Positions 25,050 through 34,790 of a stretch of DNA of 64,000 bases are shown piece after piece (the stretch's first letter is position 1; every line of letters starts with the position of its first letter). Position numbers and translations under genes: made by a program. The stretch comes from an uncultured Oscillospiraceae bacterium (GTDB lineage: Bacteria > Bacillota > Clostridia > Oscillospirales > Oscillospiraceae): contig CAJOEH010000022.1 of assembly GCA_905233385.1 (NCBI GenBank), positions 846 through 64,845 on the forward strand, written 5' to 3'. Under the pieces are notes generated by a model that saw nothing but the letters and a program-made list of their open reading frames with translations, did no database searches and was not told the DNA's origin.

Positions 25050-25550
25050 TCATTCTTTGACTTCGTGGTTTACATAATCTATGTATTGATAGGGGATGCC
25101 GTTTTCCTCCATCAACTCGGAGGCGGCGGTCTGTTCCCAGTTCGGGAGCGCGTTCAAATCGGGGAAGAAGCTGTCCGCCGGCGCGTCGGTCAGGGTCTTC
25201 GTGACGAGGGCGCGGTCACAGTACGGCAGGAGCTGCCGGTAGACGCTTGCGCCGCCGATCACGAAAACGTCGTCGGCAGGTACGTCCTTGACCTTTTCCA
25301 GCACCTCGGCGAGACTGCGGCAGACCTCCGCGCCCTCGACCTCAAAGCCGCGCCTGCCCGACAGGATCAGGTTGCGGCGGTTTTTCAAGGGTTTTCCATT
25401 CGGGAAGGTCGAAAGCGTCTTGCGCCCGTAAATAACGTTCTTTCCTTCCGTCAGGCGGCGGAAGCGTTTCAGATCGTCGCGCACGGCGACGAGCAGGCGG
25501 CCGTCCTTTCCGATCCCCCAGTCCGGGGTCACGTTCACGATTGCGATCAT
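25050..25550 (-). CDS. folA: Dihydrofolate reductase
   Basis: DWGIGKDG, DLKRFRRLT, IYGRKT and VFVIGGASVY motifs. Confidence 0.95.
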   Translation of the reverse strand: MIAIVNVTPDWGIGKDGRLLVAVRDDLKRFRRLTEGKNVIYGRKTLSTFPNGKPLKNRRNLILSGRRGFEVEGAEVCRSLAEVLEKVKDVPADDVFVIGGASVYRQLLPYCDRALVTKTLTDAPADSFFPDLNALPNWEQTAASELMEENGIPYQYIDYVNHEVKE

Positions 25551-25559
25551 GGCCGTTCC

Positions 25560-26390
25560 TCAGACCGCGACGGGGATCTTCTCTTTGAATTCGTGGCAGC
25601 GGTAGTCCTCGAAGCGGAAATCCTCGACCTTGAATTCATAGAAATCCTTCACGTCTTGGTTTACATAAAACTTCGGCGCCTCGTACGGCTCCAGCTCCAG
25701 CATCTTCTCCACCATCGGAACGTGGCGGTCGTAGATGTGGCAGTCGGCGATCACGTGGACGAGCTCGCCCGCCTCCAGGCCGCTCGCCTGCGCCATCATA
25801 TGCACCAGCACGGCGTACTGCACGACGTTCCAGTTATTCGCCGTCAGCATGTCCTGCGAGCGCTGGTTGAGGATGGCGTTGAGCGTGTTGCCGCTGACGT
25901 TGAAGGTCATCGAATAGGCGCAGGGATAGAGGGCCATCTCGTGCAGATCGCTGAAATTGTAGAGATTCGTCAGGATGCGGCGGCTGGCGGGGTTGTGCTT
26001 CAGGTCGTACAGCACGCGGTCGACCTGATCGAACTGACCTTCCGGGTATTGGTGCTTCACGCCGAGCTGATAGCCGTACGCCTTGCCGATGGAGCCGTTC
26101 TCGTCCGCCCACGCGTCCCAGATGTGGCTCTTGAGGTCGTGGACATTGTTGGACTTCTTCTGCCAGATCCACAGCAGCTCGTCGATGCACGATTTATAAT
26201 ACGTGCGGCGCAGCGTCATGATCGGGAATTCTCTGCGCAGGTCGTAGCGGTTGACGACGCCGAAGCACTTGACCGTATGGGCGGGGCTGCCGTCCTCCCA
26301 GCGCGGGCGCACGTCCCGGTCGGTGTCCCACACACCCTCGGTCAGAATCTTTTTGCAGGTCTCTTTATATAAAATATCTGCGTAACTCAT
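25560..26390 (-). CDS. thyA: Thymidylate synthase
   Basis: MALYPCAY (catalytic Cys), LNQRSQD and HIYDRH motifs; start 26390 after AAAGGA. Confidence 0.95.
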   Translation of the reverse strand: MSYADILYKETCKKILTEGVWDTDRDVRPRWEDGSPAHTVKCFGVVNRYDLRREFPIMTLRRTYYKSCIDELLWIWQKKSNNVHDLKSHIWDAWADENGSIGKAYGYQLGVKHQYPEGQFDQVDRVLYDLKHNPASRRILTNLYNFSDLHEMALYPCAYSMTFNVSGNTLNAILNQRSQDMLTANNWNVVQYAVLVHMMAQASGLEAGELVHVIADCHIYDRHVPMVEKMLELEPYEAPKFYVNQDVKDFYEFKVEDFRFEDYRCHEFKEKIPVAV

Positions 26391-26574
26391 TATGACCATT
26401 CCTTTCTGTTTCAACAAGGCACACAAGGACCACAAAAAAGGAATGGTCATAATATGCCAAGTTTTTCGGTTGCCCCGTCAGGGGCGAGAAAAACGGCTTG
26501 GATTCAATGAAGGTTGAAACTTGTTTCAACCTTATCACCCGTATCAGCATAGCAAATCCGCGCGGAAAAGTCAA
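26390..26574 (-). promoter_or_regulatory. thyA promoter and about 150-nt structured 5' UTR with RBS-sequestering stem
   Basis: TTGACT-N17-TATGCT at 26574-26546; hairpins at 26510-26533 and 26457-26501; perfect 16-bp inverted repeat 26390-26405/26437-26452 covering the SD. Confidence 0.65.
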
Positions 26575-26599
26575 TCGTGCGGCGAATATCAAAAAAATG

Positions 26600-26662
26600 T
26601 AAATTACCTATTGACACGGTAGGCAATTTATGCTATTGTAAACCTACCCGATAGGTAGGTTT
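26600..26662 (+). promoter_or_regulatory. sigmaA promoter of the sulfur operon with two palindromic operators
   Basis: TTGACA(26611)-N17-TATTGT; TAAATTACCTA-N9-TAGGCAATTTA spans the -35; AAACCTAC-N7-GTAGGTTT spans the start site. Confidence 0.75.
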
Positions 26663-26685
26663 TTATTTTTCCAACGGAGAATCCT

Positions 26686-26760
26686 ATGAAAAACGTGTTT
26701 GAACGGCTCGTTCGTGCCAACTTCCGTTTCGGGCGAATGTGTTGTCGATGTTGCCGCTGA
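26686..26760 (+). CDS. Cys-rich leader peptide MKNVFERLVRANFRFGRMCCRCCR (24 aa)
   Basis: GGAGA RBS, ATG at 26686, TGA at 26758-26760; 4 Cys codons among the last 6 sense codons; directly upstream of metY. Confidence 0.8.
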   Translation: MKNVFERLVRANFRFGRMCCRCCR

Positions 26761-26798
26761 AAGGAAAGCAACTCACAACATACTCGTCACGAAAGGAG
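26722..26798 (+). promoter_or_regulatory. Putative translational attenuator hairpin
   Basis: About 29-bp imperfect stem pairing 26722-26754 (includes the Cys codons) with 26768-26798 (includes the metY SD GAAAGGAG). Confidence 0.7.
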
Positions 26799-26805
26799 AC
26801 AAACG

Positions 26806-28092
26806 ATGTCACAATATAAATTTGAAACTTTGCAGCTCCACGTCGGGCAGGAATCCCCGGATCCCGCAACCGACGCGCGCGCGGTGCCGATCTACCAGAC
26901 GACTTCCTACGTCTTCCGCGACTGCGCCCACGCCGCCGCCCGATTCGGGCTTGCCGACCCGGGAAACATCTACGGCAGGCTCACAAACTCCACGCAGGAG
27001 GTCTTGGAGAAACGCGTCGCCGCGCTGGAAGGCGGCGTTGCCGCGCTGGCGCTGGCCTCCGGCGCAGCAGCGATCACCTACGTGCTCGAAGCCCTCGGCA
27101 GGGACGGCGGCCACATCGTCTCGCAGAAGACGATCTACGGCGGCAGCTACAACCTGCTCGCCCACACCCTCCCCGGCTTCGGGATTTCCGCGAGCTTCGT
27201 CGATATCCACGACCTGCGCGCGGTCGAGGCCGCGATTCAGGAGAACACCCGCGCGATCTACATTGAAACGCTCGGCAATCCGAACAGCGACGTTCCCGAC
27301 ATTGACGCGCTCGCCGAACTGGCGCACCGCCGCGGCATCCCGCTGGTCGCGGACAACACGTTCGGTACGCCGTACCTCATCCGCCCGATCGAGCACGGCG
27401 CGGATATCGTCGTCCACTCGGCGACGAAATTCTTAGGCGGCCACGGTACGACCCTCGGCGGCATCATCATCGATTCCGGCAAGTTTGACTGGGCGGCGAG
27501 CGGGAAGTTCCCCGGAATCGCCGAGCCAAACCCGAGCTACCACGGCGTTTCCTTCGTCAAGGCGGCCGGCCCGGCGGCCTTCGTCACCTACATCCGCGCC
27601 ATTCTGCTGCGCGACACCGGCGCGGCGATCTCCCCGTTCGCGGCCTTCCTGCTGCTGCAAGGGGTAGAGACCCTGTCGCTTCGGCTGGAGCGCCACGCAG
27701 AGAACACGAAAAAGGTCATTGAATACTTGAGCACTCATCCGCAGGTCGAGAAGGTCAACCATCCTTCCCTGCCCGACCATCCCGACCACGCGCTGTATGA
27801 AACCTTTTTTCCGCGCGGCGGCGGCTCGATCTTCACCTTCGAGATCCGCGGCGGCGTGAAGGAAGCGCACAAGTTCATCGATCACCTGCAGCTCTTCTCC
27901 CTGCTCGCTAACGTTGCCGACGTGAAATCGCTGGTCATCCATCCCGCGACGACGACCCACAGCCAGCTCAATGAAGAAGAGCTCGCCGATCAGGGGATAC
28001 GCGCGAACACGATCCGCCTGTCGATCGGCACGGAGCACGTCGACGACATCATCGCCGATCTGGAGCAGGCCTTCGCGGCTGTCAACGAATAA
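26806..28092 (+). CDS. metY: O-acetylhomoserine/O-acetylserine sulfhydrylase
   Basis: AVPIYQTTSY, YGRLTN, VHSATKFLGGHG (PLP Lys) and LLANVADVKSL motifs. Confidence 0.93.
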   Translation: MSQYKFETLQLHVGQESPDPATDARAVPIYQTTSYVFRDCAHAAARFGLADPGNIYGRLTNSTQEVLEKRVAALEGGVAALALASGAAAITYVLEALGRDGGHIVSQKTIYGGSYNLLAHTLPGFGISASFVDIHDLRAVEAAIQENTRAIYIETLGNPNSDVPDIDALAELAHRRGIPLVADNTFGTPYLIRPIEHGADIVVHSATKFLGGHGTTLGGIIIDSGKFDWAASGKFPGIAEPNPSYHGVSFVKAAGPAAFVTYIRAILLRDTGAAISPFAAFLLLQGVETLSLRLERHAENTKKVIEYLSTHPQVEKVNHPSLPDHPDHALYETFFPRGGGSIFTFEIRGGVKEAHKFIDHLQLFSLLANVADVKSLVIHPATTTHSQLNEEELADQGIRANTIRLSIGTEHVDDIIADLEQAFAAVNE

Positions 28093-28155
28093 GCTCAAAC
28101 TCTATTAAAAAACAATCAATATCTACCAAAATTTAATCAGAAAGGATTTTTAGCC

Positions 28156-29088
28156 ATGTCTAAGATTTATACTTCCGCCGATCAGCTGATCGGAAAGACC
28201 CCGCTGCTGGAGCTCACCCACATTGAAAAGGCATACGGTCTGAAGGCGAAACTCCTCGCCAAGCTCGAATACTTCAACCCCGCCGGTTCCGTCAAGGACC
28301 GCATCGCGAAGGCGATGATCGATAAGGCAGAGGCCGAGGGCAAGCTGAAAGAAGGCTCCGTCATCATCGAGCCGACCTCCGGCAACACCGGCATCGGCCT
28401 CGCTTCCGTGGCCGCCGCGCGCGGCTACCGCATCATCATCACCATGCCGGAGACCATGTCGGTCGAGCGCCGTCAGCTTATCAAGGCCTACGGCGCGGAG
28501 ATCGTCCTGACCGAGGGCGCGAAGGGCATGAAGGGCGCGATCGCCAAGGCCGCGGAGCTGGCGGAGCAGATTCCAAACAGCTTCATTCCCGGCCAGTTCG
28601 TCAACCCCGCCAACCCCGAGGCGCACCGGCAGTGCACCGGCCCCGAAATCTATGAGGACACCGACGGCGAAGTCGATATCTTCGTCGCGGGCGTCGGCAC
28701 CGGCGGCACGATCACCGGCGTCGGCGAGTATCTGAAATCCAGAAAGCCCGCCGTGAAGGTCGTCGCCGTGGAGCCCGCCACCTCCGCCGTGCTTTCCACC
28801 GGCGTTCCCGGCGCGCATAAGATTCAGGGCATCGGCGCGGGCTTCGTCCCCGACGTGCTGAACACGAAGGTCTACGACGAGATTCTCCCCGTCTCAAACG
28901 AGGACGCCTTCGCCACCGGCAAGGAGATCGGCAGGCGCGAGGGCGTTCTGGTGGGCATTTCCTCCGGCGCGGCGGCCTTCGCGGCGATCGAGCTGGCGAA
29001 GCGGCCCGAGAACGCGGGCAAGACCATCGTCGTCCTCCTGCCGGACACCGGCGACCGCTATCTCTCCACACCTTTGTTTGCGGAATAA
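28156..29088 (+). CDS. cysK: Cysteine synthase A
   Basis: [23 protein letters not shown] and HKIQGIG motifs. Confidence 0.96.
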
Positions 29089-29102
29089 GAAAGGGATATA
29101 CC

Positions 29103-30302
29103 ATGGCGAACAGGACGATATATCTTGACAACGCCGCCACGACGAAGACGAGCAGGCGCGCGATCGAGGCGATGCTCCCCTACTTCGACGGCGTGTACGG
29201 CAATCCGTCCAGCCTGCACTCTGCGGGACAGGCGGCCGCCGAGGCGCTGCAGAACGCCCGCGAGCGGGTCGCGGCCTGCCTCGGCTGCACCGCGCGAGAG
29301 ATCACCTTCACCTCCGGCGGCAGCGAGGCGGACAATCAGGCGATTATTTCCGCCGCGAAGCGCGGCGAGCGGCAGGGCAAAAAGCGCATCATCTCGACAA
29401 AGATCGAGCACCACGCCGTCCTGCACACGCTGAAAAAGCTGGAAAGCGAGGGCTTCTCCGTCACCCTGCTGGACGTCGACGGCAACGGTCTGCTCGACCC
29501 GCAGCAGGTGGAGGACGCGATCTCCGCGGACACCTGCCTCGTCACGGTCATGTTCGCCAACAACGAGATCGGCACGGTCGAACCGATCGCGGAGATCGGC
29601 GCGATCTGCCGCCGGAAGGGCGTCCTCTTCCACACCGACGCCGTGCAGGCGGTCGGGCACCTCCCCATCGACGTGAGCGCGCAGAACATCGACCTTCTCT
29701 CCCTCTCGGCGCACAAATTCCACGGCCCGAAGGGCGTCGGCGTGCTCTACGCGCGCAAGGGCGTCCCGCTTACCAACGTGATCGAGGGCGGCGCGCAGGA
29801 GCGCGGCAAACGCGCCGGCACGGAGAATCTGCCCGCGATCATGGGCATGGCGTCGGCGCTGGAAGACGCCTGCGCCTCGCTCGAAGGCAGCGCGAAGAAA
29901 CTCGCGGCGCTGCGCGACAGGCTGATCGCCGGCCTGTCCGAGATCCCGCGCAGCGTCCTCAACGGCGGCCGCGAGCGGCGGCTGCCCGGCAACGTGAATT
30001 TCTGTTTTGAGGGCATTGAGGGCGAGTCCCTCCTGCTCCTGCTGGACGACAAGGGCATCGCCGCCTCGTCCGGCTCCGCCTGTACCTCCGGCTCGCTCGA
30101 CCCGAGCCACGTCCTGCTCGCGATCGGCAGGCCGCACGAGATCGCGCACGGCTCGCTCCGTCTGACTCTCTCCGAGGAAACGACGGAAGAGGAAATCGAG
30201 TACACGATCGAAGCGGTCAAAGAGGTCGTCGCCTATCTTCGCAGTATTTCGCCGGTCTGGCGCGACCTGCAGAGCGGCAAACGAGACTATATTATCAAGT
30301 GA
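29103..30302 (+). CDS. iscS: Cysteine desulfurase (NifS/IscS)
   Basis: YLDNAATT, HTDAVQ, SAHKFHGPKG and SSGSACTS motifs. Confidence 0.95.
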   Translation: MANRTIYLDNAATTKTSRRAIEAMLPYFDGVYGNPSSLHSAGQAAAEALQNARERVAACLGCTAREITFTSGGSEADNQAIISAAKRGERQGKKRIISTKIEHHAVLHTLKKLESEGFSVTLLDVDGNGLLDPQQVEDAISADTCLVTVMFANNEIGTVEPIAEIGAICRRKGVLFHTDAVQAVGHLPIDVSAQNIDLLSLSAHKFHGPKGVGVLYARKGVPLTNVIEGGAQERGKRAGTENLPAIMGMASALEDACASLEGSAKKLAALRDRLIAGLSEIPRSVLNGGRERRLPGNVNFCFEGIEGESLLLLLDDKGIAASSGSACTSGSLDPSHVLLAIGRPHEIAHGSLRLTLSEETTEEEIEYTIEAVKEVVAYLRSISPVWRDLQSGKRDYIIK

Positions 30303-30312
30303 GGCAAATGCT

Positions 30313-30744
30313 ATGGCGTTATACAGTGAAAAAGTCATGGATCATTTCCGCAACCCGCGCAACGTGGGCGTGATCGAGGACGCGGACGGCGTCGGCGAGG
30401 TCGGCAACGCGAAATGCGGCGACATCATGAAGATGTACCTGAAGATCGACGGCGATATTATTTCTGACGTAAAGTTCGAGACCTTCGGCTGCGGCAGCGC
30501 GATCGCGTCCAGCTCGATGGCGACCGAACTCATCAAGGGCAAGCCCGTGTCAGAAGCGCTGAAGCTGACGAATCAGGCGGTTGCGGAGGCCTTAGACGGT
30601 CTGCCCGCGCACAAGCTCCACTGCTCGGTGCTCGCCGAGGAGGCGATCAAACGCGCTTTGCAGGACTACTATGAAAAGAACGGCATCGACTATGACCGCA
30701 CGCAGTTCCCGCAGTGCGAGACCTGCGGGCATTGCGACGCGTGA
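30313..30744 (+). CDS. iscU: Fe-S scaffold NifU/IscU with a Cys-rich tail
   Basis: KCGDIM, FGCGSAIAS and KLHCSVLA motifs; tail QCETCGHCDA. Confidence 0.93.
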   Translation: MALYSEKVMDHFRNPRNVGVIEDADGVGEVGNAKCGDIMKMYLKIDGDIISDVKFETFGCGSAIASSSMATELIKGKPVSEALKLTNQAVAEALDGLPAHKLHCSVLAEEAIKRALQDYYEKNGIDYDRTQFPQCETCGHCDA

Positions 30745-30754
30745 GGGCCGGCCT

Positions 30755-31183
30755 ATGATGATCTCAACGAGAGGGCGCTACGCGCTGCGCGTGCTGATCG
30801 ATCTGGCCGAGCACGCGCAGGACGGATACGTGCCGATGAAGGACGTGGCGCAGCGGCAGGGTATTTCGCTCAAGTATCTGGAGCGGATCATCCCCGTGCT
30901 GACAAAGCACGGCATCGTGGACGGCGTGCAGGGCAAGGGCGGCGGCTACCGCCTGCTGAAAGCGCCGGAGGAGATCGGGATCGGCGACGTTCTCCGCCTG
31001 ACGGAGGGCGACCTCGCGCCGGTCGCCTGCCTGGAGTGCGGCGCGAAGCCCTGTGAACGGGAGTTTGAATGCCGCACCTATCCCCTCTGGGTCGATTTCT
31101 ACCGCGTCATCACGGACTTTTTCGACAGCAGGACCCTCGCCGATATTATCCGGATCGATCCGGCGGATAATTACTCCATTTAA
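30755..31183 (+). CDS. Rrf2-family regulator (IscR/CymR-like)
   Basis: STRGRYALR and GKGGGY motifs; CLEC-x4-C-x5-C cluster. Confidence 0.9.
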   Translation: MMISTRGRYALRVLIDLAEHAQDGYVPMKDVAQRQGISLKYLERIIPVLTKHGIVDGVQGKGGGYRLLKAPEEIGIGDVLRLTEGDLAPVACLECGAKPCEREFECRTYPLWVDFYRVITDFFDSRTLADIIRIDPADNYSI

Positions 31184-31435
31184 TGCACAATGCTCAATGA
31201 TTATTCAGCCGTGTCATTGCGAGGTTTGCGGAGCAAACCGTGGCAATCTGTCCGCGGCAGGTATGGTATGCGTATCGTATTACAGGAAAGTGTCCCGCGT
31301 CGAGAGGCACGACCCGCACCCGCCGTAGGGAGGCGTCCCCTGACGCCTCCGTATCCTGTGCGAGAATCCGCGTTGCTCTTTGCGGAGGCATGTGGGCATG
31401 CCTCCCTACGTGTGTCGTATTTCGGGCAATGACAG
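31182..31435. repeat. Composite repeat: AATGNNN heptamers, TGTC element and GTAG REP doublet (31325-31409)
   Basis: 31211-31253 is a near-exact reverse complement of 22156-22198; the REP doublet matches 24857. Confidence 0.8.
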
Positions 31436-31456
31436 GTATAAAGTGCGGCGGAAAAT

Positions 31457-31498
31457 AGAAAACGCTCCCTGAACCGTTCGGTTCGGGGAGCGTTTTCT
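31457..31498. terminator. Bidirectional terminator (sulfur operon / atp operon)
   Basis: AGAAAACGCTCCCTGAACC-gttc-GGTTCGGGGAGCGTTTTCT. Confidence 0.85.
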
Positions 31499-31506
31499 GT
31501 CGCGGC

Positions 31507-32118
31507 TTATTTGCTCAGGCGGTAGAGATTGCCGTCCTTGACGAAGCCCATCGAGTTGAGGTACTTCACGTGCTTCTCCGAAGGCTCGGCGATCTCCAGG
31601 CGGGTGAACTGCCCGTTCGCGAGCAGCTTCTTGTACATGAACCGGCCGACCGAGGCGTCGCGGAACTTCGGCGTGGAATAGTCCACGATGATGCGCAGCG
31701 AGCCGTCGTCTTGCTTTTTGCCCAGCAGCACACCCACCGGCACCAGATCGTAGTAGACGAAATACGCCGTGTCCGCCGTGTCCTTCTCCAGCGCGACCTC
31801 GGGGAAGAAGCGCTGCATGTCCGAGCCGTAGAAGGTCATGAATTCCTTGAGATAGGCGTTGTCCGTTTCGATCGGCAGCATCGTCCGGAGCTTTTCCGCC
31901 CGCAGCAGGCGGATGAGGAAATAGAGGTTGATGCTGACGATACCGAGATTCAGGATCGCCGTGGGATACGAGCCGATCAGCAGCGCGTAGACCACGAAGA
32001 TGCCGGATCCGATCGTGTTGATGACGCGCAGCTTGACGACCGACGCCATGAGGAACGATACCAGTACGAGCACCGTCGAAACGTAGCCGATGATTTCATA
32101 GATCGTTGATGTTTCCAT
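31507..32118 (-). CDS. YgjV-like membrane domain fused to a GNAT-like soluble domain
   Basis: IIGYVSTVLVLVSFLM..KLRVIN membrane segment; VDYSTPKFRDASVG and HVKYLNSMGF GNAT-like motifs. Confidence 0.7.
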   Translation of the reverse strand: METSTIYEIIGYVSTVLVLVSFLMASVVKLRVINTIGSGIFVVYALLIGSYPTAILNLGIVSINLYFLIRLLRAEKLRTMLPIETDNAYLKEFMTFYGSDMQRFFPEVALEKDTADTAYFVYYDLVPVGVLLGKKQDDGSLRIIVDYSTPKFRDASVGRFMYKKLLANGQFTRLEIAEPSEKHVKYLNSMGFVKDGNLYRLSK

Positions 32119-32132
32119 ATCTCTTCTCCTTC

Positions 32133-34790
<2,658 letters not shown>

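Follow-up and report, generated by a model that had tools for sequence, protein, structure and literature searches.

A conserved leader peptide with an invariant CGA-AUG codon pair, a probable sulfur-amino-acid attenuator upstream of metY in Clostridia

Introduction

We analyzed a 64,000-nt stretch of DNA from an uncultured Oscillospiraceae bacterium (GenBank assembly GCA_905233385.1, contig CAJOEH010000022.1, positions 846 to 64,845 of the forward strand), hereafter called the window, in which a short open reading frame (ORF) stands just upstream of metY, the gene of O-acetylhomoserine sulfhydrylase. Sequence comparison supports that this ORF encodes a cis-acting, translated leader peptide. 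It is a member of a large unannotated leader family of gut and rumen Clostridia, which probably controls genes of methionine biosynthesis and uptake. From RNA folding with a modeled ribosome, the leader is probably a sulfur-amino-acid attenuator, in which ribosome pausing at an Arg-Met codon pair (CGA17-AUG18), and here at cysteine codons as well, would free the Shine-Dalgarno sequence (SD) of metY.

The proposed mechanism is as follows. When Met-tRNA is scarce, a ribosome translating the leader would linger with CGA17 in its P site and AUG18 in its A site. At the window locus, scarce Cys-tRNA would cause the same pausing at the UGU/UGC codons that follow, which include a second CGA pair, CGA-UGU at 26746-51. 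The paused ribosome would hold the anti-SD within its footprint, the metY SD would be free, and metY-cysK-nifS-nifU-rrf2 would be translated. When amino acids are plentiful, the ribosome would reach the stop codon and depart, a 29-bp hairpin would re-form, and expression would be off. The slow reading of the rare CGA codon and the conserved nascent peptide would probably sensitize a single Met codon, which is the most speculative point of the mechanism. The elements of the leader region, all on the forward strand, are listed here with their positions in the window.

26676-26679, forward strand: SD of the leader, GGAG, with a 6-nt spacer to the ATG at 26686
26686-26760, forward strand: leader ORF of 24 codons plus TGA, product MKNVFERLVRANFRFGRMCCRCCR (sequence, translation)
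26686-26739, forward strand: conserved core of 18 codons (family consensus M-K-N-Y-F-E-K-L-V-R-A-N-F-R-F-G-R-M)
26722-26731, forward strand: anti-SD UUCC-g-UUUCG within codons 13-16 (F-R-F-G), by predicted pairing
26722-26798, forward strand: sequestering hairpin with a main helix of 29 bp and the leader stop codon in its apical region, by folding
26734-26739, forward strand: codon pair Arg17 (CGA)-Met18 (AUG), the proposed pause and sensing site
26740-26757, forward strand: Cys tail C-C-R-C-C-R, an optional, candidate Cys-sensing extension and also the upper 5′ arm of the hairpin
26759-26766, forward strand: 'decoy' GAAAGGAA, which could pair with the anti-SD
26791-26798, forward strand: metY SD GAAAGGAG
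26806-28092, forward strand: metY, O-acetylhomoserine sulfhydrylase, the first regulated gene (TIGR01326, 621 bits, above cut-off)

Results

A family of conserved leader peptides

The sequence-only reading of the window, a note made before this analysis, had pointed out a 24-aa ORF that has its own SD and ends in CCRCCR, and the sequence indeed contains it. On identical public metagenome contigs, this ORF is not annotated as a gene. A search for homologues, which that reading had proposed, was run on a comparison set of 80 related metY loci with one genome per species and MetY identity of 78-86%, individual loci being labeled with L-numbers. A leader homologue lies just 5′ of metY in 37 of the 80 loci by the peptide pattern F-E-x-L-[VLI]-R-x-N-[FY]-R-x-G-R-M, and in 38 of the 80 by a profile hidden Markov model (HMM). 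The 38 profile matches have E ≤ 7e-9, and are followed by a variant with G16E (L053) at 0.017 and then by noise. Because the profile scores split this cleanly, the invariance of N12, R14, G16, R17, and M18 is not an artefact of the pattern alone. The closest relative of the window locus, L186, has a near-identical leader.

Metagenomes were scanned additionally with a DNA pattern for R-x-N-F-R-F-G-R(CGA)-M, blind to the neighboring genes, and at least 120 loci were obtained, each with a full peptide. Cultured carriers of the leader are Anaerotruncus colihominis DSM 17241, Ruminococcaceae bacterium YAD3003, and Agathobaculum sp. LCP25S3_E8.

The conserved peptide comprises 18 residues, M-x-x-x-F-E-x-L-V-R-x-N-F-R-F-G-R-M, among which F5, L8, R10, N12, F/Y13, R14, G16, R17, and M18 are conserved with synonymous codon variation. 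The summed entropies at codon positions 1, 2, and 3 are 14.2, 11.3, and 22.9, respectively (37 leaders). Leu8 is encoded by all six Leu codons and Gly16 by all four Gly codons, and both AGR and CGN are used at Arg10 and Arg14. The spacing from ATG to Met18 is exactly 18 codons in 94 of 105 unique leaders, and 98 of these 105 have an SD-like 4-mer 5′ of their start. The third-position variation, the fixed distance from the start, and the SD together argue that the leader is a translated peptide under purifying selection.

These data also bear on the idea of an RNA-only element, either riboswitch-like or protein-binding, whose reading frame would be a coincidence. Strong structure in the region and nucleotide-level conservation of CGAAUG both suit such an element. 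However, variation resides in third positions, the six-fold Arg and Leu codon switches alter 2/3 bases and keep the residue, the ATG distance is fixed and the SD is nearly always there (98/105 leaders), no Rfam model matches, and codons 1-11, which make up the conserved 5′ half, lack a conserved partner to pair with. An RNA-only element is highly improbable.

Searches of Pfam and NCBIfam at E ≤ 10 with three leader peptides gave no match, and a protein-database query with a 40-aa relative returned only 10 proteins, all of them without a name. Origin of the leader from a duplication of MetY was rejected, as the resemblance of MKNYFEKL to MSNYKFETL is not significant in DNA (7.0 vs 5.4, with 31% of controls equal).

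Two further observations were made on the distribution of the leader. At L038, two leaders of this kind are arranged in tandem, ~430 nt apart, 5′ of metY; downstream of the first copy come a terminator-like hairpin and then a new promoter that contains the promoter palindrome described below. The arrangement could be a duplication remnant or an assembly artefact. Leaders with Clostridia-like metY (78-83% identity) were also found in bins assigned to other phyla, L043 (Treponema sp. metagenome-assembled genome), L072 (Hallerella sp., Fibrobacterota), and L024 (Mycoplasmatota bin), suggesting either horizontal transfer of a leader-metY unit or mis-binning.

The CGA-AUG codon pair

Among the 37 leaders, which were chosen at the amino-acid level only, codon 17 is CGA in 37/37 and codon 18 is ATG in 37/37, and the same holds for 38/38 in the HMM set. 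CGA is the rarest Arg codon in the genes 3′ of the leaders, accounting for 31 of 1349 (2.3%), and for 5.5% in the window's genes. In the tails beyond Met18, on the other hand, 27 of 58 Arg codons are CGA, and all of them (27/27) come directly before UGU or UGC. Yeast ribosomes decode the A-site codon poorly when their P site contains an inosine-adenosine wobble pair. A Salmonella his-leader assay found that CGA is read more slowly than CGU/CGC by the same tRNA (PMC4046918). The same scaffold with a last residue other than Met did not occur within 1.39 Mb of fetched loci, a metY-biased set, where 149 of 149 matches end in Met.

How the pair would act can be suggested only tentatively. The nascent chain and a P-site CGA decoded by inosine wobble might together cripple A-site decoding or peptidyl transfer, so that the following single AUG or UGY codon would sharply read the charging of Met-tRNA or Cys-tRNA; or else, the chain might bind a sulfur metabolite in the exit tunnel. 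Either would make the peptide a new kind of translational sensor.

Genes downstream of the leader

The gene-blind leaders were collected by the leader pattern, without regard to the neighboring genes. Among the matches listed, the first gene 3′ of 70 unique gene-blind leaders was MetY in 55, a methionine-binding lipoprotein of the MetQ/NlpA family in 9, and the MetN ATPase of a metNIQ operon in 4. One leader precedes a TcdA-like gene and then metY, and another one is at a contig end, allowing no call. Thus, within these matches, methionine genes lie downstream of every leader for which a call was possible (69 of 69). Both the invariant Met codon and the set of metY, metQ, and metN point to methionine as the primary signal.

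Predicted sequestration of the metY SD in the window

When 26650-26830 was folded, a main helix of 29 pairs with 2 additional apical pairs was obtained. The anti-SD UUCC-g-UUUCG (26722-31) pairs with the metY SD region (26790-98) at pair probabilities of 0.8-1.0; further pairings are 26732-36 with 26784-88 and the Cys codons (26740-54) with 26768-80, and the leader stop codon (26758-60) is located in the apical region. The hairpin of 26722-98 by itself has −31.8 kcal/mol. Against dinucleotide shuffles, the folding z is −5.1 for the segment from codon 12 to the SD, and −2.3 for a wider 146 nt of the window. Folding has therefore reproduced the stem of about 29 bp, with paired SD and Cys codons and a stop codon in the loop, that the sequence-only reading had drawn. 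Its claim that terminator, T-box, and S-box are absent held as well: no intrinsic terminator was found between leader and metY (26760-26806), and Rfam 15 at E ≤ 10 gave chance-level matches only over 25500-32500, with none at the leader.

The effect of a ribosome was predicted by constrained folding. In RNA free of ribosomes, the GGAG core of the metY SD is unpaired with a probability of 0.10, which rises to 0.4-0.75 with the P site at codons 10-21 and is again 0.10 at codons 22-24. In other words, the SD is predicted to open when Met18, Cys19, Cys20, or Cys22 is in the A site, and to stay closed when Cys23 or the stop codon is there. The earlier proposal that stalling on the Cys codons melts the stem and frees the metY SD may thus apply to Cys19, Cys20, and Cys22 in this model, but not to Cys23.

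A second partner of the anti-SD had been proposed in the 'decoy' GAAAGGAA. It is present and able to pair, and its duplex with the anti-SD is even slightly more stable than that of the true SD (−10.4 vs −9.2 kcal/mol). It is missing, however, from the closest relative L186 and is probably incidental, and was dropped as a component of the mechanism.

Two read-out designs in relatives

SD sequestration was analyzed in 106 unique loci without terminator, with the ribosome modeled as covering −12 to +15 nt around the P site. The core of the downstream SD pairs overwhelmingly with −15 to −10 nt from AUG18, where codons 13-14 have their UUCC. Only while the P site is within codons 9-18 does the SD become more open, its unpaired probability rising from 0.32 to 0.54-0.61; the value drops again past Met18. 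The mean folding z across these loci is −2.3. The result was the same when the analysis was repeated on 30 loci not chosen by DNA pattern. There, the SD partner is centered at −11 to −14 in 17 of 30 loci and at +6 to +11, just past Met18, in 6 of 30, and the anti-SD lies inside the footprint of a ribosome at codons 17-18 in 23 of 30. L002, L006, and L008 are among the six; their codon 14 is AGA, which destroys UUCC, and their anti-SD is shifted to +6 to +11. Full coverage of the anti-SD in L002 requires a ribosome that has Met18 in its P site and faces the stop codon in its A site. The hairpin architecture of the window recurs in L186, L009, L013, L105, L126, and L153, although the 3′ arms differ. 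Of the cultured carriers, Ruminococcaceae bacterium YAD3003 has the SD design.

A terminator/antiterminator design is found in a minority of leaders of the 18-residue type (class I), for example in Anaerotruncus colihominis (L054), Agathobaculum (L045), L034, L030, and L024, and in a second class of leaders (class II). In this design, the ORF runs 20-25 codons past Met18, always through the 5′ arm of the antiterminator. CGAAUG-N5-CUCCCGG is constant, as a conserved CUCCCGGRC begins 5 nt after AUG18. This motif and the sequence following it pair with a distant downstream GYCCGGGAG in a long helix, the flanks of which change together from one species to another. As an alternative, a CCCGG with a U-run behind it can take up the downstream partner, which makes an intrinsic terminator.

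Class II leaders have ~17 codons and an unconserved N-terminus, and end in M-M-C-C-R(CGA)-M, with MWCRM and MCCCQM as variants. They were found at L010, L040, L044, L047, L048, L056, L060, L063, L064, and L074, and also at L005, L018, L059, L066, L071, and L080. After a fixed 5-nt spacer, they continue into a conserved antiterminator/terminator, CUCCCGGGCA ... UGCCCGGGAG ... CCCGG and a U-run. Class II appears to be a classical Met/Cys attenuator that is unannotated. An Rfam search of 20 metY loci without class I leader found no S-box or T-box, and many of these loci carry a class II leader instead. The segment M18-C-C-R(CGA)-C of the window leader reads like a class II module added to a class I peptide.

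In the terminator design, pausing would spare the antiterminator and read-through would melt it. Pausing should mean 'on' because the Met and Cys codons of class II span the six codons upstream of the arm and because the ORF crosses the arm, and also because this polarity is the same as in the SD design and suits the physiology of biosynthesis and uptake genes. The opposite assignment, pausing as 'off', which a simple footprint mask would give, was rejected on the codon placement in class II, the extent of the ORF, and the polarity of the SD design.

Cysteine codons beyond Met18

Of the 37 leaders, 18 have Cys at codon 19, 10 have a stop codon there (UGA in 9), and the remaining 9 have another codon. 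Among 68 distinct tails, 35 have two or more Cys and 11 have none. In tails of up to 12 residues, Cys makes up 26% of residues, compared with 4% and 1% in the other two frames of the same DNA, and the positional consensus is C19-R20-C21-C22. The enrichment past codon 19 cannot be explained by UGA and UGY being a single base apart. The first eight tail residues contain 1.38 Cys in metY-cysK operons and 0.77 in front of metY alone (p = 0.017, uncorrected for phylogeny). Tails with four Cys are just two, those of the window and L186, both on metY-cysK-nifS-nifU.

The Cys codons, which the sequence-only reading took as the sensor, are not the conserved one, since the ORF ends directly behind Met18 in 10 of 37 leaders and 11 of 68 distinct tails are Cys-free. 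Lack of conservation, which that reading had itself named as evidence against it, is thus seen in part: Cys is frequent and optional. A Cys-sensing role of the tail in the window operon is plausible.

A purely cysteine-sensing attenuator would be a stronger version, the four Cys codons being the sensor and the rest of the peptide irrelevant. Cys occupies four of the last six sense codons, and in the folding model the SD should open when the A site is at Cys19, Cys20, or Cys22. Besides cysK, the operon has nifS and nifU, whose products consume cysteine. Enrichment of Cys in the tails is a feature of the family, slightly stronger where cysK follows metY, and mycobacteria provide a precedent. On the other side, homologues without any codon after Met18 and Cys-free tails exist at the above frequencies, and the elements that do not vary are the peptide and CGA-AUG. 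Leaders of this family also precede metQ and metNIQ, a ribosome about to decode Cys23 is predicted to leave the SD closed, and Cys19 may be frequent in part because UGA and UGY are one base apart. A sensor of cysteine only is rather improbable.

The Cys-rich C-terminus and the Fe-S assembly genes of the operon would also suit a peptide acting in trans, either as a small protein or as a precursor of a modified peptide (of the SCIFF/ranthipeptide kind, or a metal- or Fe-S-binding micro-protein). However, the Cys tail is missing in many members, and the neighbor genes (thyA, dfr, metY, cysK, nifS, nifU, and rrf2) include no radical SAM maturase. NCBIfam and Pfam gave no match, the leader is always directly 5′ of Met genes, and its codons double as anti-SD or abut the antiterminator. 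We give a trans-acting product very little credence.

Pausing or nascent-chain arrest

Several points weigh against attenuation by pausing at CGA17-AUG18 as outlined here. Classical hungry-codon leaders use several regulatory codons, and the rest of their peptide is unconserved. One Met codon in a strongly conserved peptide fits a nascent-chain arrest sensor better. The metagenome set was chosen by a DNA pattern that fixes CGAATG and TTYCGN. The predicted opening of the SD is partial (~0.5) and rests on an assumed footprint of −12 to +11..15 nt, and the anti-SD can alternatively pair with the leader's own SD (−8.3 kcal/mol) or the decoy. Complementarity between SD and anti-SD is no greater for leader-bearing metY than for leaderless metY (−8.65 vs −8.10 kcal/mol, p = 0.37), so a special adaptation of the SD to the anti-SD was rejected; the anti-SD complements an SD of the usual kind. 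For the terminator design, on and off are assigned by argument, and the footprint-mask result may be read the opposite way. Finally, the association of tail Cys with cysK is weak and uncorrected for phylogeny.

The main alternative is a ligand-sensing arrest peptide, in which the 18-residue chain binds a sulfur metabolite in the exit tunnel and arrests the ribosome, in elongation or termination, at Arg17-Met18, the SD being freed by arrest and not by tRNA charging. The ligand might be O-acetylhomoserine or another starvation signal, or Met or S-adenosylmethionine (SAM) might relieve an intrinsic arrest. Conservation of residues 5-18 and a fixed length are typical of arrest peptides, not of hungry-codon leaders. 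Those 10 of the 37 leaders whose ORF ends right at Met18 (with UGA in 9) are comparable with the termination arrests of TnaC and SpeFL, and the anti-SD of L002, as noted, is completely covered only by a ribosome at Met18 that faces the stop codon.

However, known ligand arrests turn genes on with the ligand, and biosynthesis and uptake genes need to be on without the end product. The ligand would thus have to signal starvation or to release the arrest, and for the latter we know of no precedent. Class II keeps CGA-AUG and the Cys/Met codons, but not the peptide, and the peptide resembles neither TnaC nor SpeFL nor another leader model of NCBIfam and Pfam. We consider such an arrest peptide unlikely, and the sulfur-amino-acid attenuator remains the reading that we favor.

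Operon and promoter

The other genes and sites of the window locus are as follows.

26602-26628, strand not applicable: 27-bp imperfect palindrome AATTACCTATTGACACGGTAGGCAATT around the −35 element, with a core CCTA-N9-TAGG at 26607-23, a candidate operator
26611-26639, forward strand: σ70-type promoter TTGACA-17-TATTGT with TG extension, 10/12 matches
26640-26662, strand not applicable: palindrome AAACCTACC-cgata-GGTAGGTTT with a T-run, terminator-like, directly 3′ of the −10 element
28156-29088, forward strand: cysK, cysteine synthase A (TIGR01139, 454 bits)
29103-30302, forward strand: nifS-type cysteine desulfurase (TIGR03402, 547 bits)
30313-30744, forward strand: clostridial NifU Fe-S scaffold protein (TIGR03419, 218 bits)
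30755-31183, forward strand: Rrf2-family regulator, IscR/CymR-like (TIGR00738, 127 bits)
31457-31498, strand not applicable: hairpin with 20-bp arms between convergent genes, at the operon end, a probable terminator

The start of rrf2 is probably the ATG at 30755, as the TIGR00738 match starts at residue 29 of the ORF that opens at 30671. Transcription is inferred to start at about 26646-48, ~40 nt 5′ of the leader ATG, and relatives have the same promoter architecture.

Within the 450 nt 5′ of metY, 35 of 78 related loci have the core CCTA-N9-TAGG, most often in the form CCTATTGACAnnnTAGG, compared with 0 of 78 control windows inside metY. It occurs in metY loci with and without the leader, and is kept in L186. 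From its sequence and position, the palindrome around −35 (26602-28) is probably a repressor operator, and the operon's own Rrf2 protein is a candidate regulator. This suggests a putative transcription-factor layer beneath the leader control. A reading of the operon as lacking CymR-type control is probably wrong given this palindrome and the rrf2 gene in the operon.

Relatives also have a palindrome at the site equivalent to 26640-62, with changed stem sequences, as in L009 with CCAACCgttaaGGTTGG. It could be a second operator or a 5′ hairpin that stabilizes the mRNA. In some loci, this palindrome would form a stem-loop at the extreme 5′ end of the mRNA, and in the window it overlaps the predicted transcription start.

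Two observations concern the flanks of the operon. The 270-nt spacer (31190-31450) from rrf2 to the terminal hairpin has nested GC-rich inverted repeats, 31324-51 and 31383-410, whose 28-nt arms are 82% complementary and which could be a repeat element or a structured RNA; the spacer also has an 80-codon ORF without family match. On the other flank, the listed ORF of thyA (25560-26450, reverse strand) has 296 aa, compared with a 276-aa product in the gene calls on identical public contigs. With a product of 276 aa, its true start is probably 20 codons downstream, leaving a 300-nt divergent intergenic region that is shared with the leader promoter.

Discussion

The nearest precedent of mechanism is the 'Cys ribulon' of mycobacteria (Canestrari et al.), where ribosomes stalled on polycysteine leaderless short ORFs block duplexes that sequester a ribosome-binding site (bioRxiv 10.1101/834739). 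Those ORFs and the window leader share clustered Cys codons, translational control without terminator, and genes of cysteine and sulfur metabolism. The mycobacterial ORFs are leaderless, have the Cys run as their only conserved feature, and belong to Actinobacteria, whereas the present leader has its own SD, a predicted transcription start ~40 nt upstream, an 18-residue peptide, and an invariant CGA-AUG, and belongs to Clostridia. Cys codons are an optional part of it, and its regulon is methionine. The two are not homologous in sequence. The sequence-only reading had called the mode of attenuation apparently undescribed in Clostridia; the mechanism has this precedent, and the leader family is one for which we found no description in the searches made. 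Elsewhere, Cys leaders have been predicted in Actinobacteria (PMC1262725) and, as the uORFC-8-2 motif, upstream of cysS in Rhodobacterales (PMC8632094).

Compared with the attenuators of trpL, hisL, pheL, leuL, and thrL, the family is alike in that the position of a ribosome would select between RNA structures and that the regulatory codons match the pathway; the relatives with terminator design and class II are the closest to them. The window leader is different from trpL and hisL, as it has no terminator and would act on an SD, with a single Met codon rather than a run and with a conserved peptide. In the relatives with terminator design, the pause would spare an antiterminator rather than expose one. 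By generic criteria for an attenuator, an ORF with SD and a codon of the pathway are present and the mutually exclusive structures are predicted; the single Met codon is atypical.

Among SD-based systems, the leaders of erm and cat genes (ermCL, ermBL) likewise involve a late-stalled ribosome that disrupts an SD-sequestering hairpin and a nascent peptide that matters, but what stalls their ribosome is an antibiotic bound in the exit tunnel, and the genes under their control confer resistance. SpeFL is an ornithine-sensing arrest peptide. The tryptophan-responsive TnaC (PMC8429421) has a peptide conserved over ~15-20 residues and arrests at the last sense codon beside the stop codon; the present family is similar in its conserved peptide and, in 10 of 37 leaders, in a stop codon that follows Met18. 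Neither TnaC nor SpeFL has sequence similarity to it, and both induce catabolic or decarboxylase genes by substrate, while biosynthetic and uptake genes are concerned here.

S-box (SAM-I) riboswitches and the Met and Cys T-boxes serve the same genes (metY, metNIQ, and cysK) in related bacteria, also with either a terminator or an SD as read-out. Unlike these, the present leader has no aptamer or tRNA-binding structure, and its sensor would be a translated ORF. Textbook control of Met and Cys genes in Firmicutes is by S-box, T-box, and CymR, and a methionine leader-peptide attenuator is, to our knowledge and within the searches made, not on record. A description of the leader family was found neither in Rfam, Pfam, or NCBIfam nor in the full-text papers and preprints searched, a set thin in subscription journals. 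What appears to be new is a conserved 18-residue peptide with an invariant rare-codon pair, a methionine regulon, two platforms on one sensor, and its occurrence in Clostridia.

The peptide pattern and CGA-AUG are simple enough for automatic annotation. The finding raises the question of whether codon-pair context and a nascent chain can together tune the ribosome into an amino-acid sensor. In abundant gut Clostridia (Oscillospiraceae, Acutalibacteraceae, Lachnospiraceae, and Butyricicoccaceae), many genomes have no S-box or T-box before metY, and no account of how they control this gene was found in the literature searched; the leader family would fill this gap. If true, the proposal would provide the first bacterial example of a leader or arrest peptide that responds to methionine, modular in design and widespread in the human and ruminant gut.

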